14,076 nucleotides of DNA from Nitrosopumilaceae archaeon (GTDB taxonomy: Archaea > Thermoproteota > Nitrososphaeria > Nitrososphaerales > Nitrosopumilaceae). Numbering within the stretch: position 1 is the stretch's first letter; each line of letters starts with the position of its first letter. The notes below the pieces were generated by a model. It was not told where the DNA came from, made no database searches, and worked only from the letters and a program-made list of their open reading frames with translations. The translations under genes and the position numbers were made by a program. Positions 1 through 14,076 of the stretch are shown in pieces. The stretch lies in the NCBI GenBank assembly GCA_965200155.1, contig CBDATR010000046.1, forward strand, positions 1 through 14,076. Reading direction: 5' to 3'.

Positions 1-1
1 T

Positions 2-2746
2 TGTACAAAGTCCCTACAAAGGGGAGTGGTTCCAGATGCCGCGATCATATCACGTATAGTATCCAGCATGGCAGCAGCGGCGCCCGTCCTGTTGGTGATA
101 GACGAGTTCGGCAAGAATGTTGAGTATTTTGCTAATGGTGGCAGTGATGGAGATTTGTTTCTGTTGCAGGAACTAGCGGAGATGACCGGTACGCGCGCCG
201 TGCGCCTACACATAGTGACCATGCAACATATGGCACTTGGCGAGTATATGGCAGGATCCTCGGCCACACGTATCAAAGAGTGGGCCAAAATACAGGGTCG
301 TTTCGATAGTATTCATTTTACCAACACACTGGAACATACAAGGGCGCTTCTCTCCTCATTCCTGAAGCACGGCATCAAACAATCCAGTCACATATTAGAG
401 TGGGCCGATGGGCATGCCAAGATGATTGCCGAAGAGGCAGGCATGGGCATACCAACCAATATTGCAGCATCTTGCTATCCGCTTCATCCCTTGGCTGTTG
501 AGGCACTACCGGAATTGTGTTCTAGATATGGCCAGAATGACCGCACGCTACTTTCTTTTGTGTTTGGAAGTGGACCGGGTACTGTCGCAAGGTTTGTCGA
601 GAATACGCGGTGGGATGGGCAGGGTGCTCTGCCGACCATAGGAGCAGACCAACTGTATGATTATTTCATATCTGGATCTGCTCCTGCCGGGGCAGCGGCC
701 TCATCATCCAGACTAATTGAGATTGACACGATAGTGCGTGACACGCGCGCTTCAGATAAGACGGAGATGAGTGTCCTCAAGGCCATAGGCCTGATGAATC
801 TTATAGGCCGCTCCGGTCGTCTACGCGCCTCCATGGGAATTATACGGTGCATGGTGGGACATGGGGCTGAGCAGGCCGTCAGGAGTTTGGAATCCAGATC
901 CATCATAACCTACAGGGTGCACGCCGACGAGTATCGCATATGGCATGGAACAGATGTGAATGTAGCGGCCAAGGTGGACGCCGTGAGGAATATGATAAAG
1001 AGCAGGCCCTTCCCGGACTTGATGAAGACGACAATGGATCCTGAACCCATCATAGCTGCTAGGCATAGTCTAGAAGCCGGTACACTACGGGTGTTTGCAT
1101 CTCTCTTTGAAATGCCAGATGGTGGGATAGGCCCCGAGTATGATGGCGCGGCGATATATGGTACTAACGATACAAGGGTGCCAGCATCTGACAAACCGGT
1201 GCTGGTATCAAGATGCAAGGATGTCTCAGACTTGGTGGATGCTGCTGCCGATGTTACTGCGTTGCGCACCGCCCTGTCAGACAGCGAGGTTGCCAATGAC
1301 TGGGTGGCCAAGACGGAAGTAGGTGAAAGGCTGGCCGTCGCCAAGAATGTGCTTAAGACCAAGTTTGCCAAGGCTTATGGCTTTGGTGCCACCTGGACAT
1401 ATGAGGTTGGCGGTGAGGAACATACAGTCAGCGGTACGGCAAGCTCTGCCGCCTCCGCGATCAGTGATATTGTGTACCATGACGCCCCCACCATATACAA
1501 TGAGATGATAAACCGTAACCGTCTGACTGCCCAAGGATCCACAGCACTCAACAAATTGATGCATGCAATGATCATAAATGAGGGGGATGAACGATTGGGG
1601 TTGGAAGGCTGGAAGCCAGAGCGTGCCATATACGAGGCAATCATGAGGGAGCACAGCATCCATAAGCAAAGTGAGGATAGATTCCGCTTTTTGCAGCCCA
1701 CCGGCAAGCTCAAACGTTCATGGAGTGTGGCTCTACGCAAGATCCGTAAATCCCGCACGACGGTAACCCTGACAGAGATATATGATATTTGGAAGATGCC
1801 CCCATACGGCATCAAGAATGGCATAATGCCAATACTCGCACTCCATATCCTACTGGCCAGACGCGGAACCGTGGCCGTGTATGAGCATGGCACATACATA
1901 CCGCGCTTCAACTCCAGTATGGCTGAGCGGCTGGTAAAGAATCCAGCACACTTTTCACTCAAATACCATCACATGCCTAAACACCGCGTCACGCTAATCC
2001 AAAGTGTAGCAGAGTCTTTGGGAACAGATCCTGAAAACGGTCTGCTTGGAATAGTAGGCCACGTGGTCAGTGTGGTGCGTGCATTGCCCAACTACACCAA
2101 AAAGACCAAGAACCTTGACAAAAAGACGCTGGCAGTCAGGAACATGATACAGAGTGCCGTGGAGCCAGATACGCTGCTCTTTGAGTCACTCCCGGATGCT
2201 TTGGGCATGGACCCGCTTGGACACGATACAAACGAACGCATAACAAGGAAATTTGCCAGGAACCTTACGCGCACCATCGGTAAGATGCAGTCAGCATTTG
2301 ATTCAATGTTGACGCGCATGATTGAAATGCTGCTCAGGGAGACCAACATGCCTGACAGGGCCTCTTTGTCCAAGACGGCGTCCAAGATTCTACAGGATGC
2401 CTCAGACCAGCGGATGAGTGTATTTCTTGGTGCTGCCTCGGCGGAAATACCCGATGACAAGGCATGGATAACCTATGTGGGGCTTGCATTAACAGATGCC
2501 CCGCCTGCGGATTGGAGTGATGAGCAAGAAAAGACGTTCACAAATGCCCTTAGAAACATCATACCGGTTTTCAGGCGATTGGTGGCGCTACGGTTTGGAA
2601 CAGTTTCAAACAACTTTGAGAGGCAGTCGGTCATGGTTACGATAACCCATCCAGACGGGAGGGAAGAGCAAGCCATACTGCCGGCCGATGACAAAAGGGT
2701 GGCAGAGCTAACTGACTTATACAGGGCAGATACACCATGCGTATGA
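2..2746 (+). CDS. sspC: SspC-like (BrxC-related) large P-loop ATPase of an Ssp-type phosphorothioation module; 5'-partial
   Basis: The frame is open from position 2 (no stop before the GTG at 26), so the gene starts upstream of the window. Walker B LLVIDEFGK, EWAKIQGRF, CYPLHP and QNDRTLLSF motifs are typical of the ATPase found with DUF4007/PAPS reductase. Walker A is not in the window. The stop overlaps the PAPS reductase start. Confidence 0.75.
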   Translation, partial: CTKSLQRGVVPDAAIISRIVSSMAAAAPVLLVIDEFGKNVEYFANGGSDGDLFLLQELAEMTGTRAVRLHIVTMQHMALGEYMAGSSATRIKEWAKIQGRFDSIHFTNTLEHTRALLSSFLKHGIKQSSHILEWADGHAKMIAEEAGMGIPTNIAASCYPLHPLAVEALPELCSRYGQNDRTLLSFVFGSGPGTVARFVENTRWDGQGALPTIGADQLYDYFISGSAPAGAAASSSRLIEIDTIVRDTRASDKTEMSVLKAIGLMNLIGRSGRLRASMGIIRCMVGHGAEQAVRSLESRSIITYRVHADEYRIWHGTDVNVAAKVDAVRNMIKSRPFPDLMKTTMDPEPIIAARHSLEAGTLRVFASLFEMPDGGIGPEYDGAAIYGTNDTRVPASDKPVLVSRCKDVSDLVDAAADVTALRTALSDSEVANDWVAKTEVGERLAVAKNVLKTKFAKAYGFGATWTYEVGGEEHTVSGTASSAASAISDIVYHDAPTIYNEMINRNRLTAQGSTALNKLMHAMIINEGDERLGLEGWKPERAIYEAIMREHSIHKQSEDRFRFLQPTGKLKRSWSVALRKIRKSRTTVTLTEIYDIWKMPPYGIKNGIMPILALHILLARRGTVAVYEHGTYIPRFNSSMAERLVKNPAHFSLKYHHMPKHRVTLIQSVAESLGTDPENGLLGIVGHVVSVVRALPNYTKKTKNLDKKTLAVRNMIQSAVEPDTLLFESLPDALGMDPLGHDTNERITRKFARNLTRTIGKMQSAFDSMLTRMIEMLLRETNMPDRASLSKTASKILQDASDQRMSVFLGAASAEIPDDKAWITYVGLALTDAPPADWSDEQEKTFTNALRNIIPVFRRLVALRFGTVSNNFERQSVMVTITHPDGREEQAILPADDKRVAELTDLYRADTPCV

Positions 2747-3579
2747 GGCACATCTGCGGCATATCCGGTGGAAAAGACTCTAGCGCCCTCGCCATATACA
2801 TGCGTGACCAAGTACCAGACATGGAATACTTTTTTTGCGACACTGGTGCCGAGCTGCCTGAAACATACAAGTATCTGTCAAAACTAGAGGTGGCATTGGG
2901 CAAGCCCATAGCGCGCCTTAATTCAGATCGTGACTTTGCCCACTATTTTGAGATATTCCGTGGAACGCTGCCGTCACCTCAGATGAGATGGTGCACCAGC
3001 CTACTGAAGATAAAGCCGCTGGAGGAGTGGATAGGGAACGACGATACCATATCGTATGTGGCCATACGTGCAGATGAGTCCAATCGCAAGGGATACGTAT
3101 CCACCAAGCCAAACATACAGACACGTTTTCCATTCGTTGAGGATAACGTAGATCACGACGGCGTCATACAAATACTGGAGGATGCAGGGATAAGCCTGCC
3201 CGAATACTACGAGTGGCGAACCAGATCGGGATGCTACTTTTGCTTTTTCCAGAGAAAGGCCGAATGGGTTGGACTGGCGGACAAACACCCGGATCTGTTC
3301 CAAAAGGCGATCGCCATTGAACAAAAGACACTCAAGGATGCTGGGTTGGATGGCGATGTATCGTTTGCAGCCAGTGGCATGAAAGGCAGGCAGTACACTT
3401 GGTCTGATGGTGAAACATTAACCGAACTGCTTGGGCGCCGTGATGACATAATGAAACGTCATGCCCAGAATGTTGAACGTATCAAGAAGAGACGCAAGAA
3501 TCTACCACTTATTGATGTGTTGTCCGATGCACTTGACGAGGATGATGAGACGACACCGTGTACCGTCTGCCACCTGTGA
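2737..3579 (+). CDS. sspD: SspD-like phosphoadenosine phosphosulfate reductase family (PP-loop, Fe-S) protein
   Basis: PP-loop GISGGKDSSAL, RWCTSLLKI, RSGCYFCFFQ and a C-terminal CTVCHL; 280 aa, shorter than DndC. Alternative start ATG 2743 gives an ATGA overlap with the upstream stop. Confidence 0.8.
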   Translation: MRMRHICGISGGKDSSALAIYMRDQVPDMEYFFCDTGAELPETYKYLSKLEVALGKPIARLNSDRDFAHYFEIFRGTLPSPQMRWCTSLLKIKPLEEWIGNDDTISYVAIRADESNRKGYVSTKPNIQTRFPFVEDNVDHDGVIQILEDAGISLPEYYEWRTRSGCYFCFFQRKAEWVGLADKHPDLFQKAIAIEQKTLKDAGLDGDVSFAASGMKGRQYTWSDGETLTELLGRRDDIMKRHAQNVERIKKRRKNLPLIDVLSDALDEDDETTPCTVCHL

Positions 3580-3591
3580 GGTTGAAGTTGT

Positions 3592-5694
3592 CTGACTGAA
3601 CACGGTTTTGAGCCAAAGCCTGGATGGAACTCTGCCACAGACAACATAGTAGATGATTTTTACCGTCCCGCCCTCAAGGGGAGTGTCAAATATGATCGAC
3701 TTGCAGGATTTTTCGATTCGAACACTTTTGCTGCGGTGCTTCGGGAGGCCATAGATTTTGCAGAGCGCGGGGGCAGGATGCGACTTATAACAAGTGCAAA
3801 GTTCTCACAAGCCGACCTTGATGTGATCCGAAAAAGCATGGATGACCGACTGCTTGAGGATGTGTCAGCCATAATGAAGGATGACATTGGCAAAAAATGC
3901 ATCAGATTGTTTGCACACATGCTGGCAAAAAAAATCGATACCAAGCCACAGCTTGATATTCGGATATGGATACCGCGAGACGGCATTTTCCACGCCAAAG
4001 TTGGAGTATTCACCATGCATAACGGCGATGTTGTCTCGTTTTCCGGCTCCGTTAATGAGACGGGGCAGGGATGGACTGGAAACATAGAAGAGTTCAAGGT
4101 GTTTTGTAGTTGGATTGACAAAAAGTTTGTCGATTGGGATATTGATCTCTTCAATAAGTTTTGGGGTGGGCTCAATACAGACATACGGTGTTTTACCCTG
4201 CCTCAGGCGGTACGTGAAAAGATACTAAGTGTCAGACCTGAATCGGATATGGAATACCGACAACTAGTAAAAGAGTTGAAGGTTATGTTTAGAGGTCATG
4301 ATCGCGTGGAACACACCAAACTAGAACTGCGTGACTACCAAAAGGATGCAATAGAGGCATGGTTCTCGAGCAGGTGCAATGGCATACTTGAAATGCCTAC
4401 GGCAACCGGCAAGACATTCACTGCCATGGGTTGCATCAACCGCATGCAGGGTGATGTGGAGCGCCTGTTTACCGTGATAGCCGTGCCATATACCCACCTT
4501 ATCCAGCAGTGGAAAGACAATGTGAACAAATGGAACCAGCTGGCAAAACCAGATCAAAAAATATCTTCCAACATATTTGTCACATCAGGAACCCCATCAT
4601 GGAAGTCTAAACTAAAGCGGGTAGTGAATGAGTTTAACATGACAAAGTTGGGTGGGGAATATATCACCAACGACTACATAGTATGTACTACATACGATAC
4701 ACTGGCCTCAAAACCATTCATTGAACGGATTCAAGAGGTCAAAGGCAGCATGCTTTTGATAGCGGATGAGGCACACCACGCGGGCTCCAAAAAAAGAAGG
4801 AACGGCCTGCTGGATGTGTATTCTGGCCGTCTTGCACTCACGGCCACACCGGAGCGGTACTTTGATGATGAGGGAAGCGAGCTGATTCGCTCATATTTTG
4901 TTCACACCGCCTTTTCTATGGGAATAAAAGACGCCATTCGTGACGGATACCTTGTACCGTACGACTATAAGCCAAGGTTGGTTGAATTGAACGCAGAAGA
5001 GGTAGTTGAGTACACAAAACTGACGCGTGCCATAGCCGTAAAAATGTTAAAGAACAAGGGAAAAGTGTCTCAAGATGACGAAAAAAACACGCCAGAGAAC
5101 AAGCGCGCAAGGCTTGTGGCAAAAATGGAAGGGAAGTATAATGAACTTTCCACCATTCTTGATGAGCATGGCAATGAATTGGAGAACGCCCTAATCTACT
5201 GCCACGACACCGAGCAGATGGAAAAAGTCGAGTCGATACTTTCGGAGCGGAACATCAACTTTGAAGAGATTACCAGTGCCGACAACATGATTGAGCGACG
5301 AAACACAATACGCAGTCTTGAAGAAAAAAATCACCAATGTATAGTGTCAATGAAATGCCTTGATGAGGGAGTGGACATACCATCTGCGCGCCTTGGCATT
5401 ATACTTGCCAGCTCACGCAACACCCGTCAGTATATACAGAGGCGCGGACGCCTCCTGCGTGGTTTTGACGGCAAAGATCATGCGGAAATATACGACTTGC
5501 TGGCAACGGCGGTGCCAGAGGTTGACTGTGAACCATTTGTCAGAAAACTGTTTGCCAGGGAGCTTTTGAGGCATAAGGAATTCGCCGAGGAGGCCCGCAA
5601 CCGGCAGGAGGCACTTGAAAAGATTCGCCCGGTCGCAGAACGACACGGTGTAGATTTGGACAGGCTTAACCACGACTACATCTTGAACTTATGA
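3592..5694 (+). CDS. pbeA: PbeA-like phospholipase-D-fold nuclease + SF2 DEAH helicase; start uncertain
   Basis: PLD motif FHAKVG...FSGSVNET. Helicase motifs LRDYQ, MPTATGKT, DEAHH, LTATP, CLDEGVDIP, QYIQRRGRLLR. The family-typical N-terminus (NIVDDFYRPAL...YDRLAGFFDS) is encoded in frame at about 3643-3720, upstream of the track's GTG 3736. The frame is open from 3586; CTG 3592 is taken as a provisional start. Confidence 0.75.
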   Translation: MTEHGFEPKPGWNSATDNIVDDFYRPALKGSVKYDRLAGFFDSNTFAAVLREAIDFAERGGRMRLITSAKFSQADLDVIRKSMDDRLLEDVSAIMKDDIGKKCIRLFAHMLAKKIDTKPQLDIRIWIPRDGIFHAKVGVFTMHNGDVVSFSGSVNETGQGWTGNIEEFKVFCSWIDKKFVDWDIDLFNKFWGGLNTDIRCFTLPQAVREKILSVRPESDMEYRQLVKELKVMFRGHDRVEHTKLELRDYQKDAIEAWFSSRCNGILEMPTATGKTFTAMGCINRMQGDVERLFTVIAVPYTHLIQQWKDNVNKWNQLAKPDQKISSNIFVTSGTPSWKSKLKRVVNEFNMTKLGGEYITNDYIVCTTYDTLASKPFIERIQEVKGSMLLIADEAHHAGSKKRRNGLLDVYSGRLALTATPERYFDDEGSELIRSYFVHTAFSMGIKDAIRDGYLVPYDYKPRLVELNAEEVVEYTKLTRAIAVKMLKNKGKVSQDDEKNTPENKRARLVAKMEGKYNELSTILDEHGNELENALIYCHDTEQMEKVESILSERNINFEEITSADNMIERRNTIRSLEEKNHQCIVSMKCLDEGVDIPSARLGIILASSRNTRQYIQRRGRLLRGFDGKDHAEIYDLLATAVPEVDCEPFVRKLFARELLRHKEFAEEARNRQEALEKIRPVAERHGVDLDRLNHDYILNL

Positions 5695-6099
5695 CTGGAT
5701 AAGTTTCAGTAATATGTCATCGGGGTAGTTTCCACCCTTCATCATCTTAACCTTGCTGTGCAACTCATCAATGCCAGCATTGGCATATCCTTCACACATG
5801 TGGCGCAGTTTAGTATTATCCCTTATAGCATAAACATCACTGTCTTCATCAATCATAATCGAGCGCATGAGTATCCTCATCCTCGTGTTGAATGCGGATC
5901 CGGGCAATTTAGTTTGCTTTCCAAGTTTCTTTGGGGTAATCTGGTGTCTTTTAGCATAGGCCATTGCAAAAAGAAACACCTCGGCGCGCGTTCGCTTGTA
6001 GAACGGAGAATATGGATCATCCTCAAGTTCAGTGTACTTCTCAGCTTTTGTTCCATCATACATTATCTCCGAAAGCTTAATGTCAAGGTCGTCTGTCAT
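5689..6099 (-). CDS. Small DndE/PbeB-like phosphorothioation-associated protein
   Basis: 136 aa from ATG 6099 (ATGA overlap with the ATPase stop at 6096). RAEVFLFAMAYA and CEGYANAGIDEL segments resemble the small partner of DndD-like ATPases. Its stop overlaps the helicase stop convergently (5689-5694). Confidence 0.6.
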   Translation of the reverse strand: MTDDLDIKLSEIMYDGTKAEKYTELEDDPYSPFYKRTRAEVFLFAMAYAKRHQITPKKLGKQTKLPGSAFNTRMRILMRSIMIDEDSDVYAIRDNTKLRHMCEGYANAGIDELHSKVKMMKGGNYPDDILLKLIQS

Positions 6100-8240
6100 T
6101 GCTGTGTTACCCAACCTTCTAATATTTTGGTTTTCCCACTTTCCTTGTCATGTTGCACCGTATATTCCTGTATGGTGGCTTTTTCCTTCAAAAGATCTAT
6201 CAATGATGACTCCTTACCACCATCCTCCGGACGTAGCGGATCATGGCTGTACTCGGTGTTGGTCACAAGCATGATCAGTTGAGAGCCGTCTAATAACTCG
6301 GGCATATGTTTTCCAAAACGAATCCTTAGGTTACCACCGGTCTTTCCAAGTGGGCTGTCTATGACAAACGGAAATTTGTACTTGGTGACGCGCTTCAGCG
6401 CCATAATAAACGACAGGGCCAAAAACAGCTTTTCGCCAGCTGACATGCCTCCTACCACATCTAGCCCCTCATCGTCAATGACTCGTATGTGGTACTTGTC
6501 GTCGATCCTCATGTCGGTGTAGTTTTTCTTCCAACTCAGATTGTTGTATATCTCAAGTGTTTCTTTTGAGACATCGTTCTTGATAAACTCTTCAACAGTA
6601 TTTTTTATATTGCGTATGTTATCTTTTATGACATCTGATTTATCAAGTAACAGATCCGCTTTCCTTTCAACCTCTGACCGGTTTTTTATTGCATTAAGTG
6701 CGCGCTGCTGGTTGCCTTTTTCTTGTTTCAATCTTTCTATTTCGCTTTTTACACGTCCAATTTCCTGTTGGCAATTGTTATGATCCTGTCTCAAATCATC
6801 ACACTTGCTTATGAGGCCGCCATAATCTGTGTCTGTCTTACCTACTTGGTTCTTGAGTGTACTTATGGTATCTTCAATTTTCTTCAAAGATTTACGTATA
6901 TAATTTATATCGCTCTTTTCCTCATTTATTCGCTTTACCGTTATGTTATATTCTTTGAGAAACGACTCATTGTGTTGTAAAATATCATTCGCTAGGTCAT
7001 ATTGAGATTCATCAACAACCCGATCCAACTCCTCTTTTACAAACTTTCTGGCATCCGTTCCTTCATCTAATCGTGTGTGGCACAAGCACTCACGTTTATC
7101 TAGCAGCTCGTTGACAAGTGTACGTTTTGGGTTGTTGGGGAGTTTTCCTTTTCTCACCTCTGTGCGTATCAATTTAGCGGCACACTCAATTGATGGTTTG
7201 CACATTATAAACGGCCCATCAGTCATCAACCTCTCCAAGTGTGTATTAAGTAGTTCATCACGCCGCTCTGTCGTGTTCGTTCTTTCTTCACGTTTATTAC
7301 GGTAGTCCTGCTCCAATTGTGTTTTTTTGTATGCGTTCGACTCATTGATTTTCCGCTCTAAATCGTTGATATCATCTTGCATTACAAGGGCCGACTTATT
7401 CAAGTCTTCCAAGCGGGGTTCGCCACTTACATGTATTGGGTTATCGGTTCCATGAATAAATTCGGTTGAACTAGTTTCTACGGCTCCGTGACGATTCTCG
7501 GAGCGGAGTTTCTGCTCTATTTCCGTTATCTTTGCATGGATGGGTTTTGTGTTCCCGATGCCTTTGGGTCGTTGGAAACGGACTTTTGTCACAAAATCTA
7601 AGGCATCATCTAGAATAGGTATCTGGGAGATCTGGCCTATGCCTGATTTAACATCCTCAAACTTATCAAACAGTTTCTGCAAGAATTCCCCATCTAGTAT
7701 GAAGAAATGCGACAGGTGTTCTGGGATTATGCGCTCATTCACCAAGGTGGCAAAATGATTACGATCATCATTGAGTGTTTCCCAACGCCTAGAATTTTGC
7801 GATATTTGAAATAGTGTTGACTTGTCTCTATTAATGATCTCCACGCCGCGTGGAACAGGATCAGCAGCGAATAAAATCAGTGTGCCGTGGTCTGTACGCT
7901 CAAGACGGTGTAATTGTCCCTCTATCTTACGTCGTATGAGATATTTTGTGTCCCCCTCATGCATTATGATTTGTACATATGTGTCAACCTTTCTAACATC
8001 CTGACTTTTCTCTACCTCATACAGATGTGACATGTTGATTATTGGTGTGGCACTTTCATGAGGTTCGTTCCCAAACAGGCACCAATGAATAGCATTCCAA
8101 AAATTTGACTTGCCAGCCCCATTCGCCCCGATCAAAACGGCGAGCGTGTTTTCATCGGTAGGAAATTTAACATCTACAGTACCGTAATATTGTCGATAGT
8201 TATGTAATTTGATCTCTAATATTCGGAAATCGTCATCCAT
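6096..8240 (-). CDS. pbeC: PbeC/DndD-like SMC/Rad50-type coiled-coil ATPase with CxC hook
   Basis: N-terminal IKLHNYRQYYG, Walker A GANGAGKS, FFILDGE, long coiled coils with central ECLCHT (CxC), signature MSAGE, Walker B FVIDSPLGK. Start ATG 8240 (alternative TTG 8246). Confidence 0.75.
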   Translation of the reverse strand: MDDDFRILEIKLHNYRQYYGTVDVKFPTDENTLAVLIGANGAGKSNFWNAIHWCLFGNEPHESATPIINMSHLYEVEKSQDVRKVDTYVQIIMHEGDTKYLIRRKIEGQLHRLERTDHGTLILFAADPVPRGVEIINRDKSTLFQISQNSRRWETLNDDRNHFATLVNERIIPEHLSHFFILDGEFLQKLFDKFEDVKSGIGQISQIPILDDALDFVTKVRFQRPKGIGNTKPIHAKITEIEQKLRSENRHGAVETSSTEFIHGTDNPIHVSGEPRLEDLNKSALVMQDDINDLERKINESNAYKKTQLEQDYRNKREERTNTTERRDELLNTHLERLMTDGPFIMCKPSIECAAKLIRTEVRKGKLPNNPKRTLVNELLDKRECLCHTRLDEGTDARKFVKEELDRVVDESQYDLANDILQHNESFLKEYNITVKRINEEKSDINYIRKSLKKIEDTISTLKNQVGKTDTDYGGLISKCDDLRQDHNNCQQEIGRVKSEIERLKQEKGNQQRALNAIKNRSEVERKADLLLDKSDVIKDNIRNIKNTVEEFIKNDVSKETLEIYNNLSWKKNYTDMRIDDKYHIRVIDDEGLDVVGGMSAGEKLFLALSFIMALKRVTKYKFPFVIDSPLGKTGGNLRIRFGKHMPELLDGSQLIMLVTNTEYSHDPLRPEDGGKESSLIDLLKEKATIQEYTVQHDKESGKTKILEGWVTQQ

Positions 8241-8436
8241 TTCCAACTTCCTTAAAATTATGCAATATCAGCTCCTTGTAACGCGCTTTGAATAACTTCT
8301 CATCTAGTTTCCCATCCCGCTGGCGCATTTGGATTACCTCACGCAACATATCTACAATGACACGAGCAACCCGTTCATCTTCACACTTCTCATGTATGGT
8401 TTTGAGTATTAGTGGATTGATGTCGGTACTATGCAC
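8233..8436 (-). CDS. Small helical protein heading the CxC-ATPase operon (PbeD-like)
   Basis: 67 aa ORF (GTG start) overlapping the ATPase start, with a TATA box ~25 nt upstream. Size and position match the small proteins that accompany DndD-like ATPases. Confidence 0.55.
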   Translation of the reverse strand: MHSTDINPLILKTIHEKCEDERVARVIVDMLREVIQMRQRDGKLDEKLFKARYKELILHNFKEVGNG

Positions 8437-8456
8437 TCATAGGCTAATTCATTGGG

Positions 8457-8466
8457 GTTTATAAAC
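8457..8466 (-). promoter_or_regulatory. Archaeal TATA box (TTTATAAA) of the minus-strand small-protein/ATPase/DndE-like operon
   Basis: Palindromic GTTTATAAAC centred ~25 nt upstream of GTG 8436, the spacing expected for a leaderless archaeal transcript. Confidence 0.65.
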
Positions 8467-8565
8467 ATATGAGTTCACGTCTTCCGGAATCTTATGCACA
8501 AATCACATTAACTGGTAACCGGTTCTATCAGTTATGCGTAAATTTAGACACAGGTGAACTCATAC
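8467..8565. mobile_element. MITE copy A (99 bp), IS66-like TIRs, inverted relative to copies B and C
   Basis: aTATGAGTTCAC...GTGAACTCATAC. Its reverse complement matches copy C except for the terminal base and a 12-bp centre (AGAACCGGTTAC) in place of CGCGA. No flanking direct repeat (TTATAAAC vs CAAATCTT). Confidence 0.85.
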
Positions 8566-8722
8566 CAAATCTTTCTCTTCATTGATCTTGGTGTTTCTTT
8601 CGTATTCAGCCATGACCTTGGCTAACTTGTCCCGTAGAATCTCAACCTCGGGGTCTTCCATATGTCGTGTATTGGACTAATCAGAATATATGGTTAAGTC
8701 ATGGTGAGACCTAAACGGTTAC
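8566..8722 (-). mobile_element. Probable left-end remnant of a second IS66-type element with a truncated coiled-coil ORF
   Basis: The minus strand begins GTAACCGTTTAG at 8722 (IS66-like GTAnnnGTTYA end). A TATA-like CATATATT follows, then ATG 8661 encoding MEDPEVEILRDKLAKVMAEYERNTKINEEKDL, which stops inside the MITE TIR (8560). Confidence 0.5.
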
Positions 8723-8786
8723 GTATGGACAATCATAATTCCAGCAAGCACATTAATGTGGGTATCAAAATTCAAAATGTACCATC

Positions 8787-9704
8787 ATGTCCAACCCCGA
8801 CAACGCATATGATGTAATAATCATAGGGGCGGGACCCGCGGGATATACCGCAGGCATATACTGCTCAAGAGCCGGTCATCGCACAGTACTGCTCTCAGGA
8901 ATACTGCCAGGCGGACAGCTAGTCAATACCACCGACGTCGAGAATTATCCCGGTTTTGAGGATGGTATAATGGGCCCGGATCTCATGATAGAAATGAGAA
9001 AGCAGGCCGCCCGCATGGGCACCAACATAATAGATGATATGGCTACAGCGGTGGACTTTGCCGGTCCCCTGCAAGTTCAAAGCCACGATAAAACGTATCA
9101 GGGGCGCGCCGTTATAGTAGCAACTGGCGCGGATCCACGCAAGCTGGGACTGGATGGCGAGCAGACCCTGGGAGGAAAGGGCGTATCATACTGTGCTACC
9201 TGCGATGGCCCATTCTTCCGGAACCAAGAGATAGCGGTTGTAGGGGGCGGTGACACCGCCATGGAAGAGGCCACATTTCTAACAAAGTTTGCCAGTAAGG
9301 TGCACGTAATACACCGGCGGGACAAATTACGAGCAAGTCAGGCCATGCAGGAGCGCGCCATGGCAAATGACAAGATACAGTTCCACTGGAACTCGGTAAT
9401 AGCCAGAATATACGGCGATACAAGAGTGGAAGGCGTTACCATCCAGGATACAACAGGCAGTCACGAAATGGCCGTCGGTGCAGTCTTTGTAGCCATAGGG
9501 CACAACCCCAACACGACGCTATTCCAGGATCACTTAAAGCTGGACCCTGAGGGATACATAGTAGTGGACGGCACGTCAACCAGCGTAACCGGTGTGTTTG
9601 CGGCCGGTGACGTACACGACAAGCGGTACCGACAGGCGGTGACTGCGGCAGGATTTGGGTGCCAAGCGGCCATCGACGTGGACAAGTACCTGGAGACACA
9701 CTGA
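8787..9704 (+). CDS. trxB: Thioredoxin-disulfide reductase
   Basis: FAD motif IIGAGPAG, GGQL..TTDVENYPG, redox CATCDG, NADPH motif VVGGGDTA, HRRDKLRA, GVFAAGDV..RYRQAVTAAG. Confidence 0.96.
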   Translation: MSNPDNAYDVIIIGAGPAGYTAGIYCSRAGHRTVLLSGILPGGQLVNTTDVENYPGFEDGIMGPDLMIEMRKQAARMGTNIIDDMATAVDFAGPLQVQSHDKTYQGRAVIVATGADPRKLGLDGEQTLGGKGVSYCATCDGPFFRNQEIAVVGGGDTAMEEATFLTKFASKVHVIHRRDKLRASQAMQERAMANDKIQFHWNSVIARIYGDTRVEGVTIQDTTGSHEMAVGAVFVAIGHNPNTTLFQDHLKLDPEGYIVVDGTSTSVTGVFAAGDVHDKRYRQAVTAAGFGCQAAIDVDKYLETH

Positions 9705-9718
9705 TCTGGAAACATGCA

Positions 9719-10492
9719 ATGATGAGCGTCCGTGCCCTGGGCGTATCCCCAAAACGGGGCACATTCAACTTGTATGATGCCCTGCATGACGCACTGGACA
9801 GCAATGATGCAACACTGGAATCAGGAGACGTAATCGTGATTTCCACAAAATTTGTATCTGTCTCCCAGGGCAGAATCATTCGCCTGAGTAAGACGGCAGT
9901 ATCCCGGGATGCAGATAGCATGGCATCCAGATTCCGGCTCAGGCCACAATTGGCCGAGATCATACTGCGGGAATCCGATTACATACTGGGAGGTATGCCG
10001 GGGTTTGTGCTAGCATATGCCGGGGGAGTAATGTCCCCCAACGCGGGCATAGACGCATCTAATGCCGGTCATGATACCGTAATCATATATCCGACAGAGC
10101 CAACACGGACGGCAGAGAACCTGCGGCGGCACATATTCCTGGACACGGGTATTACGGTAGGCATAATTCTGGCAGACAGCCGTCTAATGCCCGGCAGGGT
10201 GGGTACGACTGGTATCGCGGTGGCATGCGCCGGCATAGAGCCGGTACAGGATATGCGCGGAGACAAAGACCTGGAGGGAAAACCACTCAGGGTCACTTTT
10301 CAGGCCATTGCCGATGGCTTGGCATCGGCAGGGAATCATGTCATGAGCGAGGGGGGCCAGGCCAGGCCCTTTGCACTCATAAGAGGATCCGGAGCTGTCG
10401 CCGCCCACAGAATGATATCACCGGAGGAATGCAACGTATCCCCCTCACAATGTGTCTATGTTCGTGGCCTTGCAAAGTTATCAACTGAATAA
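9719..10492 (+). CDS. cofE: Coenzyme F420-0:L-glutamate ligase paralog 1
   Basis: GDVIVISTKFVSVSQGR, PNAGIDASNA, GIILADSR, DLEGKPLRVT..AIADGLASA, MSEG...PFALIRG. Start moved to ATG 9719 (or 9722), downstream of the trxB stop. Confidence 0.88.
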   Translation: MMSVRALGVSPKRGTFNLYDALHDALDSNDATLESGDVIVISTKFVSVSQGRIIRLSKTAVSRDADSMASRFRLRPQLAEIILRESDYILGGMPGFVLAYAGGVMSPNAGIDASNAGHDTVIIYPTEPTRTAENLRRHIFLDTGITVGIILADSRLMPGRVGTTGIAVACAGIEPVQDMRGDKDLEGKPLRVTFQAIADGLASAGNHVMSEGGQARPFALIRGSGAVAAHRMISPEECNVSPSQCVYVRGLAKLSTE

Positions 10493-11200
10493 GTCCCCCT
10501 GACGCCGTATCATATCCTGGCCCAGGCCATCACCTTCCACATCTAGTCCCCGTATCACCGCAGCAGGACACCCCGTACTCTTTTGCATGACAAGCTCCGC
10601 GGCCCCGGCCAGCTGGTCCGCTGTCGCAGCGACACTAACCCGCAGCGTGCGACCGAACATATCAGTTGTCCCCACATAATCCCTTAATGCCGGTACGCCA
10701 GAGCACCCCAGACAGATATCAGTCTGGCCATTCCGAAATGGACGGCCGGCAGTATCAGATATAATCACCCCCACCGATACGCCCGTAATTCGTTGTAGCG
10801 AGCGCCGTATGCCCAGGGCCGATGCGTCACTATTAACAGGCAATAACAGGGCATAACCTAGCGGAACGTTACTCTGATCCACACCGGAGTTGGCGCATAC
10901 ATGACCCTGTGGCGTGCGGGTTATTATGATACCGTTACCCATTCGAACTATCTCCGAGGCTTCTTGTAGTACAAGCTCCACTACTCTGGAATCCTTGCCA
11001 TACTGATCCGCTATCCCCTGTGCCAGGAGTGACGGCTTTATGGAGTCCAGTCGCATCATGCGACCCTCTGCCTTGGAGACCGCCTTTTGTGCAATCACGA
11101 TAATGTCCCCATCACACAGCTGAAACGATTTGGCTAGCATATGAGCCAGGTCGCTACCAGGCGCCACCTCCCCGTCCACCGACACAGGCATTACCCTCAT
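10481..11200 (-). CDS. cofE: Coenzyme F420-0:L-glutamate ligase paralog 2
   Basis: DGDIIVIAQKAVSKAEGR, VCANSGVDQSNV, VIISDTAGRPFRNGQTD, DMFGRTLRVS..ATADQLA, PAAVIRG, C-terminal DLF. ATG 11200 preferred over TTG 11224. Confidence 0.92.
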   Translation of the reverse strand: MRVMPVSVDGEVAPGSDLAHMLAKSFQLCDGDIIVIAQKAVSKAEGRMMRLDSIKPSLLAQGIADQYGKDSRVVELVLQEASEIVRMGNGIIITRTPQGHVCANSGVDQSNVPLGYALLLPVNSDASALGIRRSLQRITGVSVGVIISDTAGRPFRNGQTDICLGCSGVPALRDYVGTTDMFGRTLRVSVAATADQLAGAAELVMQKSTGCPAAVIRGLDVEGDGLGQDMIRRQGDLFS

Positions 11201-11272
11201 ACGCGTATACGCAGGGTTACGCAAAATATGGGTTGTGACTGCATAGACTTGACTATACGAAAATTATTCCAC

Positions 11273-11593
11273 TTAGTCATTGGCATCCCGCTCCATCCAT
11301 TTTGTATCATTTGCCCTAATTGTCTGGGTCACCTTTTTATTCCTGGAGTGGTGTTTCGGCGTTATCTATCCAGTGAGAAGTGCAACCTTCTCTCATTATA
11401 GTAGTCCACATAATCCCGGAGACGGTCATAATGCCATATCTCATCCTCAATCATTCCATGGAAGCGCTCCAGTTTGCCATTTGTCTGTGGATGATATGGT
11501 CTGGAATTGATTAGTATGATATCTTGATCCAGCAGTTCTTCCTAGAATAGTGGGTTTCCAGTTCTTTTTGCCCTTTTATTGTCCTATGAAACA
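11273..11593 (-). pseudogene. IS481-family (rve integrase core) transposase, 3' fragment with stops and frameshifts
   Basis: Manual minus-strand translation: CFIG*..WKPT / F*EELLDQDIILINSRPYHPQTNGKLERFHGMIEDEIWHYDRLRDYVDYYNERRLHFSLD / NKKVTQTIRANDTKWMERDAND*. PxTNGKxERF and YNxxRxHxSL are rve-core hallmarks. It is cut at 11593 by the IS66 end. Possible element end TGACTATACGAAAA at ~11250. Confidence 0.85.
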
Positions 11594-12955
11594 GTATGAG
11601 TTCACGTGTTTTGATCACATAATAAGATAGAATGCATCCCAGTTTTTTAATTATAACTGCATTCTGGCAGCAACCTCGTTCATTACAGAAAGGCCCTGAG
11701 CCCTCCATGTCTGAACACATGATACAAATGTAGACATGCGGCGCATTGCCCTTTCGCCACCCTTTATCTGACCACTGATCTTGCGGAATACCACTGCGTA
11801 TCGCAAAGCCTGCTCCGCTGGATTGTTGGTGGGCTCTACACTGTCATATTCTAAGAATACGAACATGCCTGGTATGGCCTTATTCAATCCTTTTACCTTC
11901 TTTTGTAGTTCAGTATCATCAACATCACAGTACTGATGCAGAATGGATTCTGCTCCTGTCTCAAATGAGTGTCGTAATTGCGCGGACGGCCCGCAGTGAT
12001 TCAGGGATTCACGTGCGCTCCGGAACAATCCTTTCAGGTCGTTGTCAAGTTTGATCCGGGCGTCCTGAGCACCGGGATCGATATAGAATCCTGCATGTAA
12101 TGCCTGGGTATCGCGCAATAAATGCGCCCAACACAACTGGTGCTTCCCACCGTCATCAAACCGGCGGTACACAACGTACCTGTCCGTTACTATCGCTCCC
12201 TGGTAACCGTTCAGGTATTTGTTCACTACATTTGAACTCCTACTTTTGTCATATATGGACATCATCCACTCTTCGGCTCGCATCCCCCATACCCAGCCAC
12301 GCCTACCCGCCAGTGATATACCAGTTTCGTCCACATGAATGCTGGGTGATTTTATTATATTTTCATGAATTGTTTCCATAAATGATTCACATGCATCGGC
12401 GGCCCTGGCAATTATGTTGTTTACCGCACCCACAGATATATTCAGGCCGAAGAGATCCTTCGAAATTACAGGTATGCGTTTTATTGGAATCTTTTCCGCA
12501 CGCAATGCAGTGATGGCACCGCATAATTGAACCCCAAAACTACCACTCTTTGGGACGCCCGCTGCTGGGGCCAGTTGTTTTTTGCCGCACTTGCATGCAG
12601 CCATTTCTATCACATGAAGGGTCTCCTCTATTTTGGCTGGTATTAATTCCGTTATGTGTCGTTGTTTCCAACCAATTTTTGTCATCATATTGCCGCACTC
12701 ACATATTGGTGTGTACTCAAAGGTGTGATGCACTACTCTGCCGGGGTTGTGGGAACGAGAAACCCCCTTGTGTCCCTTTTGCGCGCCAGCCTTTTTGGCT
12801 GATTTCGTACTGGCTTCTTTCTGTTGCTTATTATCTCCCTGTTTTCGCTTCTGCTCCTCCTGTTTTCGCTTCTTGTACTGGAGGGATTGAAGGGATGGTG
12901 GCGAGTGAGCATTCTCATAATATTTAAGTCGCGTTGTGATTACCGCAATTTTCCT
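11594..12955 (-). mobile_element. IS66-family element (single-ORF type), right end intact, left end replaced by MITE B
   Basis: TIR GTATGAGTTCACGT at 11594, 57 bp past the transposase stop. The 5' side runs directly into MITE B at 12956. Confidence 0.85.
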
Positions 12956-12967
12956 GTATGAGTTCAC
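11651..12967 (-). CDS. IS66-family DDE transposase, probably N-terminally truncated
   Basis: ENAHSPPS, KKAGAQKGHKG, zinc finger CECG...CKCG, HVDETG, VTDRY, HQLCWAHLLRD, PTNNPAEQALR..VVFRKIS. The GTG start and first four codons come from the MITE TIR. Confidence 0.9.
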   Translation of the reverse strand: MNSYRKIAVITTRLKYYENAHSPPSLQSLQYKKRKQEEQKRKQGDNKQQKEASTKSAKKAGAQKGHKGVSRSHNPGRVVHHTFEYTPICECGNMMTKIGWKQRHITELIPAKIEETLHVIEMAACKCGKKQLAPAAGVPKSGSFGVQLCGAITALRAEKIPIKRIPVISKDLFGLNISVGAVNNIIARAADACESFMETIHENIIKSPSIHVDETGISLAGRRGWVWGMRAEEWMMSIYDKSRSSNVVNKYLNGYQGAIVTDRYVVYRRFDDGGKHQLCWAHLLRDTQALHAGFYIDPGAQDARIKLDNDLKGLFRSARESLNHCGPSAQLRHSFETGAESILHQYCDVDDTELQKKVKGLNKAIPGMFVFLEYDSVEPTNNPAEQALRYAVVFRKISGQIKGGERAMRRMSTFVSCVQTWRAQGLSVMNEVAARMQL

Positions 12968-13047
12968 CTGTGTCTAAATTTACGCACAACTGATCGCGAC
13001 AGTTAATGTGATTTGTGCACAAGATTCCGGAAGACGTGAACTCATAC
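12956..13047. mobile_element. MITE copy B (92 bp)
   Basis: Perfect 12-bp TIR GTATGAGTTCAC/GTGAACTCATAC; differs from copy C at 2 positions; no TSD (ATTTTCCT vs TATGATAT). Confidence 0.88.
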
Positions 13048-13138
13048 TATGATATATGTAATCAAGATCCGGTCACCCCACTACACGACATTTGCAATCA
13101 CGGCATACGTTAGTGCTGACTGGTGTCACTCACATTGG

Positions 13139-13196
13139 GTATGAGTTCACGTGTTTTGATCATTCACTAAGATATAGATTGGTATGACAATATTTT
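13139..13196. mobile_element. Solo IS66 right-end fragment
   Basis: The first 24 bp GTATGAGTTCACGTGTTTTGATCA are identical to 11594-11617, and TAAGATA recurs at the same offset. Cut after 58 bp by MITE C. Confidence 0.8.
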
Positions 13197-13288
13197 GTAT
13201 GAGTTCACCTGTGTCTAAATTTACGCATAACTGATCGCGACAGTTAATGTGATTTGTGCATAAGATTCCGGAAGACGTGAACTCATAC
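13197..13288. mobile_element. MITE copy C (92 bp)
   Basis: Perfect 12-bp TIRs; direct repeat of 12956-13047; no TSD (AATATTTT vs GGGAATGA). Confidence 0.88.
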
Positions 13289-13447
13289 GGGAATGAAGCT
13301 GATCCTTGCGTTCTATGATGTCATCGAGATTTGAAACGAGGGCATTCTTTGTTTGAGCTTCAAGTTTGCCACGCAGGTTTGTTACTTCGGCCTCGGTGCG
13401 TAGACGGTTGTACTATTCTGCTCCTTGGTGAGTTCTGCTTTTAGCAT
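13289..13447 (-). pseudogene. Frameshifted coiled-coil ORF fragment truncated by MITE C
   Basis: ATG 13447 gives MLKAELTKEQ; after a frameshift NRLRTEAEVTNLRGKLEAQTKNALVSNLDDIIERKDQLHS runs into the MITE. Heptad-like pattern. Confidence 0.4.
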
Positions 13448-13592
13448 ACCTGGTATTACAAAATTAGGTCTTAACTTTTCTGTTTCACATGAGTCTGTGT
13501 GTGAAAACCCATGATACTAGGTCAATTGTTCGTATCTAATAACTTGGTTTAGACGTGCAGGGTGGGAGAAGTGATTCTGCGCATACGGTCTA

Positions 13593-13604
13593 TTATATTT
13601 ATTA
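13593..13604 (+). promoter_or_regulatory. Putative archaeal TATA box
   Basis: TTATATTTATTA ~25-35 nt upstream of GTG 13628. Confidence 0.45.
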
Positions 13605-13627
13605 GCAATCTGTTGGTTAAAATATTA

Positions 13628-14076
13628 GTGAATAAAACTTACTTCTTAGCATTACTCGCGATTATCCCTATCGCCGGAACTGCGTTGGCTGACGCTAACA
13701 ATACTATAACATACGATGATCGGATCATATATAATTTACAGAAACTAATAGATGAGGAATCATATACAACATCAAGTGATTTTTCAACACACCAATTTCA
13801 CACTCGCCTTCAAAGTGATGGATGGTATAATTCAACTATTAACGTAATTCCTAAATCAGGACTTGAGGAATCTAGAACTATCTCATTCAAATTTAGAGAA
13901 AATTCAGATAATACATATACAATCATAGCACCCGAAGTCGGCATTCGTGGTAAATTTACTACAGAAGAATTTACTCCAGATCGTAGGATACGACCACCAG
14001 GTGATCATTCTATATCACTATCTGACAGAGCAGACCACTCAGCTTATGATTTAAACAAAAGCAGATCTGATTGGTG
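13628..14076 (+). CDS. Secreted hypothetical protein, 3'-partial
   Basis: Stop-free frame from GTG 13628 to the window end (~149 codons): MNKTYFLALLAIIPIAGTALA|DANNTITYDDRIIYNLQ... It has a Sec-type signal peptide (basic n-region, hydrophobic core, ALA cleavage site). Absent from the ORF track because there is no stop. Confidence 0.8.
   Translation, partial: MNKTYFLALLAIIPIAGTALADANNTITYDDRIIYNLQKLIDEESYTTSSDFSTHQFHTRLQSDGWYNSTINVIPKSGLEESRTISFKFRENSDNTYTIIAPEVGIRGKFTTEEFTPDRRIRPPGDHSISLSDRADHSAYDLNKSRSDW

Follow-up and report, generated by a model that had tools for sequence, protein, structure and literature searches.

We analysed a stretch of 14,076 nucleotides from a Nitrosopumilaceae archaeon (assembly GCA_965200155.1, contig CBDATR010000046.1, positions 1 to 14,076; hereafter the window), in which an earlier note, made from the sequence alone, had read a mix-and-match locus of Ssp-type phosphorothioate (PT) modification genes and a Pbe-type effector module. 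The window makes up the entire left part of its contig (C46), base 1 being the contig end, and belongs to a genome bin (G000) of 2.38 Mb in 51 contigs that is 87.6% complete. Six open reading frames (ORFs) pack positions 2-8436 nearly without intergenic space, all of them at the positions given by the earlier note. The locus continues on a further contig of the bin, C43, whose bases 1-1249 on the reverse strand are 100% identical to window 1-1249; this is the basis on which we joined the two contigs, and the left end of the window is also crossed by contigs of four public runs. C43 supplies the first 167 codons of sspC, together with sspB and sspA, upstream of the window. Joined in this way, C43 and C46 hold an eight-gene locus with the order sspA-sspB-sspC-sspD-pbeA on one strand, convergent with pbeB-pbeC-pbeD on the other, and each of the eight genes reads through without frameshift or internal stop. 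The host genome carries amoA on a core contig, which bears out the earlier suggestion of a host from an ammonia-oxidiser lineage, and this DNA stretch occurs in sponge metagenomes; together these observations fit a sponge-associated ammonia-oxidising archaeon. Two RNA libraries yielded contigs over the locus, one of which spans the convergent operons; these may stem from DNA carry-over.

The first four genes form the writer module. The sspA gene (C43, locus file L003, 2670-3821, minus strand) codes for a class-V cysteine desulfurase (PADLOC SspA, E-value 7.2e-130; Pfam Aminotran_5) that also scores against DndA with an E-value of 2.9e-127, these profiles not separating SspA from DndA. Directly upstream of sspC, sspB (L003 1749-2669, minus strand) encodes a DUF4007 protein (SspB, E-value 6.5e-86; DUF4007, 3.6e-77). 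The window itself opens with the C-terminal 914 codons of sspC (2-2746, plus strand, 5' end open; PADLOC SspC PDLC02781, E-value 1.9e-237), the Walker A motif of which, GPYGSGKS, lies in the first 167 codons on C43; the protein scores 788.9 bits as SspC vs 229.8 bits as BrxC (E-value 1.2e-68). Overlapping sspC by 10 bases, sspD (2737-3579, plus strand) codes for a PAPS-reductase-type sulfur-transfer enzyme of 280 residues with a PP-loop SGGKDS and a match to Pfam PAPS_reduct (E-value 1.4e-11). Its PADLOC SspD match (E-value 7.4e-109, 361.7 bits) spans profile positions 1-276 of 277, and the rival profiles lie far lower (BrxP 44 bits, E-value 2.2e-12; DndC 23.8 bits, E-value 4.8e-6). The earlier note's identification of an SspC-like ATPase and an SspD-like PAPS reductase is therefore the one with the best scores, and the two upstream partners that it had named as worth looking for, a DUF4007 protein and a cysteine desulfurase, are both present on the overlapping contig. 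It had also named BREX type IV and DndC as competing identities. A BREX type 4 system was rejected, BrxP and BrxC scoring far below SspD and SspC and no locus protein matching PglZ or BrxL, and a DndC identity for the PAPS reductase was likewise set aside on its 23.8 against 361.7 bits.

The fifth gene on this strand, pbeA (3592-5694, plus strand; frame open from 3586), codes for a protein combining an HKD (PLD-type) nuclease domain with a superfamily 2 (SF2) helicase. It matches PADLOC PbeA PDLC02707 over profile positions 9-671 of 672 (E-value 6.9e-197, 654.1 bits) and TIGR04095, 'DNA phosphorothioation system restriction enzyme' (E-value 1.1e-112); among Pfam families ResIII and Helicase_C are matched, with PLDc_2 at 26.2 bits, just below the cut-off of 27. 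Examination of a 44-sequence alignment revealed that every invariant column is kept, with H136, K138 and the GSxNE motif intact, and the PLD-SF2 helicase frame that the earlier note had seen within 12 bp of sspD can be identified as PbeA. The conserved N-terminus begins at codon 3592-3594, 12 bases past the sspD stop and in the same direction. The two genes share a reading frame, which runs TGA-GGT-TGA, then two sense codons, then CTG (window 3577-3594), and holds no ATG, GTG or TTG before a GTG at 3736, the next ATG being at 3778. The CTG aligns with the first methionine of most of 33 homologues, the match to homologues extends on both sides of it (…TEH.FEPKPGWNS…), and a GAGGT motif, a putative ribosome-binding site, stands 9 bases upstream. 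In a congeneric genome discussed below (G328), pbeA starts at an upstream GTG overlapping sspD, the window having 7 extra bases there. Contigs of four runs, drawn from three studies, have the same CTG and the same frame; they show no indel in window 1-8600, yet differ from the window by up to 25 substitutions elsewhere. Because it is identical in these otherwise differing contigs, the CTG is a stable feature and not an assembly slip; it is probably a non-canonical start whose translation is coupled to that of sspD.

The stop codons of pbeA and pbeD overlap by 6 bases (5689-5694), and the convergent operon of a small protein, a CxC ATPase and a DndE-like protein described in the earlier note was confirmed on the minus strand. 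At its head is the pbeB candidate (8233-8436), a 67-residue ORF recognised by position and size: it has no match in PADLOC, Pfam or TIGRFAM profile searches, and G328 has a 46%-identical ORF at the same place, as a second PT cluster of the bin (contig C48, below) has a 67-residue ORF. The pbeC gene (6096-8246, minus strand) codes for a CxC-type coiled-coil ABC ATPase of 716 residues (PADLOC PbeC PDLC02723, E-value 1.9e-78, 262.5 bits), with the DndD profile lower (E-value 1.2e-34) and TIGR03185 below its cut-off (E-value 4.2e-33); the CxC lies at residues 387-389, in the middle of the coiled coil, and is kept in G328. The last gene, pbeD (5689-6114, minus strand), is predicted from profile and fold to encode a small DNA-binding protein of 141 residues related to DndE. 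Its sole profile match is TIGR04062 (dnd_assoc_4; E-value 1.8e-4, below cut-off). Used as the seed of a profile, it recruits 43 ORFs located after PbeC in other loci, and this profile aligns with 11 DndE sequences at an hhalign probability of 64.6% (E-value 6.2e-5). The AlphaFold2 model has a pLDDT of 90.4, and its ten best PDB chains in Foldseek are all DndE (probability 0.84-0.98, E-value 0.17-0.93), Foldseek alone giving no match at E-values up to 0.001. With VIA, the best matches of the model are three DndE entries, at Z 10.2 (root-mean-square deviation 3.5 over 107 aligned residues), Z 9.7 (2.9 over 95 residues) and Z 9.5 (3.0 over 98), the next family scoring Z 7.7. Foldseek rank and probability, VIA Z-scores and profile alignment together identify this ORF as a predicted DndE-like PbeD. 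In G328, as here, pbeA is on the strand opposite to pbeB-C-D.

To place this arrangement within the order we sampled 401 genomes with an SspD profile (E-value up to 1e-20), which matched in 25 of them; within the family, 20 of 112 sampled genomes matched, leaving aside the window genome. The tally includes a weak match in G271, a genome flagged as unpublished. Seventeen strong sspD loci from 16 genomes were then searched with the window proteins. Only one of them, in the two-contig genome G328 of the same genus, repeats all eight genes in the same order, with identities to the window of 71% for SspA, 71% for SspB, 66% for SspC, 87-89% for SspD, 67% for PbeA, 46% for PbeB, 54% for PbeC and 58% for PbeD. 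The sspD gene of G328 is split after codon 89 by a 1.6-kb insertion (L027 8076-9681) coding for a 409-residue DDE_3/HTH IS630-like transposase. Comparison of the islands of the two genomes found no common flanking genes; the ArgRS gene adjoining the island here has its G328 counterpart, 54% identical, far from its island. Since there are no common flanks, and since ArgRS is 54% identical as against 66-88% for SspA-D and PbeA, the comparison (with one housekeeping gene) suggests that the ssp-pbe cassette was transferred between genomes as a unit.

The other sspD loci mostly carry a different partner, namely an SF2 helicase (~535 residues, lacking a PLD domain) together with a GHKL/HATPase_c_3 ATPase of ~600 residues that weakly matches MzaB. 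This pair, which may be an undescribed Ssp-associated effector, is present in 12 of the 17 loci (L012-L014, L016-L021 and L024-L026; e.g. L020 6147-9559 and L025 6173-9581), including that of G226, which belongs to the same genus and has an SspD sharing 86% identity with that of the window. A GmrSD-type protein is additionally found in three of the 12, and in L014, L016 and L019 sspD has no sspA, sspB or sspC within 10 kb. In two further loci (G142 and G145) the contig ends at or just past sspD and the partner is not readable. An order-wide search with a PbeA profile, at a permissive E-value and with two candidates scored per genome, matched 243 of the 401 genomes via the helicase half alone, and the 15 full-length matches were used. 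As to the established Ssp effectors, the window genome (at 87.6% completeness) has no match to GmrSD_N (DUF262), the SspE-type domain, which was matched in 7 of 14 control genomes; it has no match to the DndH-like TIGR03237 either, which is uninformative as the controls gave none, and the SspF and SspG profiles were not part of the search.

Beyond the order, the closest PbeA proteins in a protein search fall into 36 clusters at 54-76% identity, all of them sequences without genomic context. A scan of species-representative genomes with the 44-sequence PbeA alignment recovered at least 80 loci at 25-36% identity, and a scan of Joint Genome Institute (JGI) metagenomes with PbeA gave seven loci, none of them close. 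Among the 80 loci listed, tblastn places SspB, SspC or SspD beside PbeA in nine and DndC in 24; 25, with enough flank, have neither Ssp nor Dnd, and 22 are too short for the partner to be judged. The nine Ssp-linked loci (L092, L097, L099, L100 and L102-L106) comprise eight from Bacteroidota and one from a metagenome-assembled genome labelled Woesearchaeota. PADLOC, run on 76 of their 84 listed ORFs after eight peripheral ones were dropped, confirmed SspA/B/C/D, and all nine PbeA proteins fit the profile PDLC02706 at more than 1000 bits. In each, PbeA abuts or overlaps sspD or sspA, and in seven the gene after it encodes an ATPase of ~715 residues that has a CxxC and scores weakly as PbeC, with an ORF of ~170 residues next; in L099 and L104 the contig ends after PbeA. 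A tenth locus, L093, has SspA beside a PbeA of the same clade. The adjacency of ssp and pbe that the earlier note had proposed to look for in other genomes is thus repeated, with the same gene order in G328 and in nine loci from other phyla among the 80 listed. In a quick maximum-likelihood tree of 59 PbeA sequences of at least 600 residues (24 of the 83 rows were shorter, mostly helicase-only forms, and were dropped), the window and G328 form one pair, in a clade with PbeA from Methanobrevibacter, proteobacteria and Prevotella, and the Ssp-linked PbeA of Bacteroidota form a separate clade nested among Dnd-linked Bacteroidota PbeA. The Ssp label requires at least three changes on this tree. 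Because the Ssp-linked PbeA fall in two separate clades, the Ssp-Pbe pairing appears to have arisen at least twice.

Both modules resemble characterised systems, with differences. The PbeABCD system of Haloterrigena/Natrinema jeotgali A29 protects in a PT-dependent manner, needs all four genes, is escaped by PT-marked virus and blocks virus DNA replication without visible cleavage (Xiong 2019, PMC6459918). Like the DndCDEA-PbeABCD locus described there, the window has the four effector types beside PT writers in an archaeal host, and the sizes are close (PbeB 66 residues in A29 vs 67 here; PbeD 152 vs 141). However, the writer here is SspABCD, with a DUF4007 protein, a BrxC-like ATPase and a short PAPS reductase, whereas that of A29 is DndCDE, and pbeA here is attached to the writer operon and runs towards pbeBCD on the other strand, whereas A29 has one pbeABCD transcript. 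The window PbeC is moderate against the PADLOC PbeC profiles (262 bits, as against 984 for the C48 copy). SspABCD has been reported to write single-strand PT (Wang 2021, PMC8092258), and the locus shares with the SspABCD-SspE and SspBCD-SspFGH systems the same writer and the succession of a writer operon and an effector cassette; unlike in those systems, which as characterised are bacterial, the place of the DUF262/DUF1524 protein or of SspFGH is taken here by another effector. Finally, Rakesh 2024 (PMC10853773) sees in PbeC-PbeD a CxC ATPase paired with DndE and with a proposed role in DNA scanning, in PbeA an HKD-SF2 enzyme and in PbeB a possible regulator, and uses 'mix and match' for the association of CxC systems with modification modules. 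The window likewise has the HKD-SF2 protein, the small protein, the CxC ATPase and the DndE cognate of these systems, but those described in the part of that paper available to us are coupled to DndD-DndE systems or cytosine methylases, and here to Ssp.

The Ssp-linked Bacteroidota subfamily fitting PDLC02706 is alike in having SspA/B/C/D by PbeA, together with a coiled-coil ATPase and the ~170-residue ORF. It differs in that its PbeA, 26-30% identical to the window's, is of a separate clade, its SspD is longer (~370 residues), its ATPase has CxxC where ours has CxC, and its Pbe genes are on one strand. The earlier note had allowed that genomic surveys might already list the pairing. This holds to the extent that a PADLOC profile, PDLC02706, fits exactly that subfamily; no paper naming the pairing of Ssp with Pbe was found in the literature searched, which did not extend to supplementary tables or to Krishnan 2020, where it may be listed. 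A review table of December 2025 lists only DndCDEA-PbeABCD, SspBCDE and SspBCDFGH. On these comparisons the locus appears to bring two known modules together in a new way and to have originated independently in archaea.

We consider that the locus is probably a composite PT restriction-modification system of eight genes, in which Pbe is coupled to Ssp. The mix-and-match pairing of an Ssp writer with a Pbe effector put forward in the earlier note is supported at the genomic level by the genes, their order and their recurrence, and by analogy with the characterised families we infer that Pbe would read Ssp-type marks. In such a system, SspA would take sulfur from cysteine, and SspD (PP-loop), SspC (ATPase) and SspB (a DUF4007 DNA-binding nickase) would introduce PT into host DNA, on a single strand of a short motif (e.g. 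CCA). PbeC-PbeD, the CxC ABC ATPase and the DndE-like protein, would scan DNA, and PbeA, with its HKD nuclease and SF2 translocase, would block or cut DNA without marks, the small PbeB regulating the module. The mark licensing self DNA would be the Ssp mark, and pbeA would be translated by coupling to sspD, probably from its CTG codon. The cassette appears to be mobile, and in this family Pbe is one among several effector cassettes located 3' of sspD.

Several points weigh against this reading. Both PT in this DNA and the antiviral activity are predictions from gene content. Rakesh et al. 2024 (PMC10853773) argue that the CxC/Pbe module can act autonomously and need not read PT. Ssp needs no Pbe, given the 12 of 17 sspD loci with the helicase-GHKL pair, and Pbe needs no Ssp, given the 25 of 80 listed PbeA loci with neither Ssp nor Dnd. 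The haloarchaeal type system has pbeA in a common operon with pbeBCD, which is not the case here. The pbeA gene also has no canonical start codon where its conserved N-terminus begins, and a start at GTG 3736 or ATG 3778 would drop 50-64 residues, seven invariant positions included. In G328, the sole further genome with this arrangement, sspD is broken, and that copy of the locus may be decaying. Finally, with the genome 87.6% complete, a native dnd cluster could be unassembled, and three of four congeners carry DndC at other places in their genomes.

Some of these points would also be explained if two independent systems merely adjoined, sspABCD being an orphan with an epigenetic or redox role or an unseen effector, and Pbe being self-contained and PT-independent. 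Such an account draws on the published counts of 320 of 553 PbeAC pairs without dndCD nearby (Xiong 2019, PMC6459918) and 2211 of 2678 sspBCD without a known effector (Wang 2021, PMC8092258), as well as on the autonomy of CxC systems argued by Rakesh 2024 (PMC10853773), on the PbeA loci with neither partner, and on the split in guanine-plus-cytosine (GC) content within the locus, which is 0.49-0.52 in the ssp genes vs 0.42-0.43 in pbeBCD. Yet the junction is operon-like, with 12 bases between sspD and pbeA here, an overlap in G328 and abutting or overlapping genes in Bacteroidota; the eight genes travel together between genomes without common flanks; and the pairing recurs in two separate PbeA clades. 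We regard two such independent systems as unlikely.

Alternatively, the locus could be a decaying remnant in which the pbeA start codon has been lost and restriction is gone. The CTG in place of ATG and the in-frame TGA that precedes it by three codons would agree with this, as would the public gene call for PbeA (P0001, 638 residues), which begins 64 codons downstream of the first codon of the frame, and the disruption of sspD in G328 by an insertion sequence. However, all eight genes are free of frameshifts and internal stops, the PbeA residues invariant in 44 sequences are all kept, and the CTG and its frame are identical in contigs from three studies that differ elsewhere by up to 25 substitutions. 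The GAGGT before the CTG, as a presumed ribosome-binding site, and the RNA-library contigs, subject to possible DNA carry-over, also speak against decay, which we hold to be rather improbable.

The earlier note had further considered that a separate dnd cluster might supply the marks, and the bin indeed holds one: its single DndC match (632.6 bits) and its DndD (573.4 bits) both lie on the 20.7-kb contig C48, which carries dndE-D-C-B, dndA, pbeA, a 67-residue ORF, pbeC and pbeD, the last a 126-residue ORF (L009 3675-18940). C48 also encodes a 934-residue protein with HARE-HTH, RNA-polymerase alpha-CTD and sigma-70 region 4 domains. Its PbeA (708.6 bits) and PbeC (984.2 bits) share just 32% and 22% identity with those of the window, and its PbeA groups with alphaproteobacterial PbeA in the tree. 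The GC content of C48 is 0.409 vs 0.466 for the whole bin, and its tetranucleotide correlation is 0.38, against more than 0.9 for large core contigs, 0.865 for C46 and 0.98 for C43. A 98-nt repeat, all 572 copies of which (at least 85 nt each) are on core contigs at ~1 per 4 kb, is absent from C48, where ~5 would be expected over 20.7 kb, and the flank of C48 found no match in four congeners, in a search without a positive control. These features suggest that C48 is foreign and doubtfully of this organism, being either mis-binned or a very recent acquisition. Thus, although the bin holds DndA, DndB, DndC, DndD and DndE and DndC is frequent among congeners, it is very improbable that the window Pbe reads double-strand PT from C48 with the Ssp genes incidental, as a contig with its own complete pbe module and a foreign composition is a poor candidate writer.

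Returning to the composite Ssp-Pbe system, a broader proposal seems quite possible, and we advance it tentatively: Pbe (CxC) modules may recognise both the single-strand marks of Ssp and the double-strand marks of Dnd; on at least two independent occasions, one in sponge-associated ammonia-oxidising archaea and one in Bacteroidota, Ssp writers may have recruited such modules; and the 3' side of sspD may be a docking site that exchanges unrelated cassettes, namely PbeABCD, SF2 helicase-GHKL and GmrSD-type ones.

Around the locus, copies of the 98-nt repeat, which has 11-nt terminal inverted repeats, are found at window 8468-8565, 32 bases beyond the pbeB start, at 12956-13046 and 13197-13287, and on C43 (L003 3835-3932), 14 bases upstream of sspA. 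Two copies thus bracket the eight genes, which at ~1 per 4 kb can be chance. The contigs of the four public runs break at this repeat, which looks like a very successful miniature inverted-repeat transposable element and is a handy marker of contigs belonging to the genome. Copies also flank an apparently intact IS66-family transposase gene (11651-12967, minus strand; 438 residues, DDE_Tnp_IS66 and zf-IS66). To the right of the locus there are also a gene for a thioredoxin-reductase-like flavoprotein and two convergent, overlapping F420-0:gamma-glutamyl ligase (CofE) paralogues (9659-10492, plus strand; 10481-11224, minus strand). On C43, a 141-residue RmuC fragment (L003 4221-4646, plus strand) lies just upstream of the ssp operon, and a eukaryote-like protein of 932 residues (L003 11863-14661, minus strand), mostly collagen triple-helix repeats, fits a sponge symbiont. 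The core contigs of the bin have a GC content of 0.45-0.49 and tetranucleotide correlations above 0.9. Some 30 small contigs (2-11 kb, e.g. C2-C4, C6, C8, C14-C18) have a GC content of 0.36-0.42 and a correlation of ~0.5, and C19, C20, C30, C36 and C37 a GC content of ~0.5 and a correlation of ~0.2; both groups are without the 98-nt repeat, and the marker-based contamination of 0.39% does not register them.

In published schemes the effector of Dnd is DndFGH or PbeABCD, and that of Ssp is SspE or SspFGH. If the reading proposed here is true, it would add a defence system to sponge-symbiotic ammonia oxidisers, where only dnd genes were found reported in the literature searched. Pbe would then be independent of the bistranded Dnd mark and of DndDE-type site recognition, which would constrain how self and non-self are discriminated, and the pairing would provide a partner for part of the 84% of sspBCD that are orphan and the 58% of pbeAC that are solitary in the published counts.

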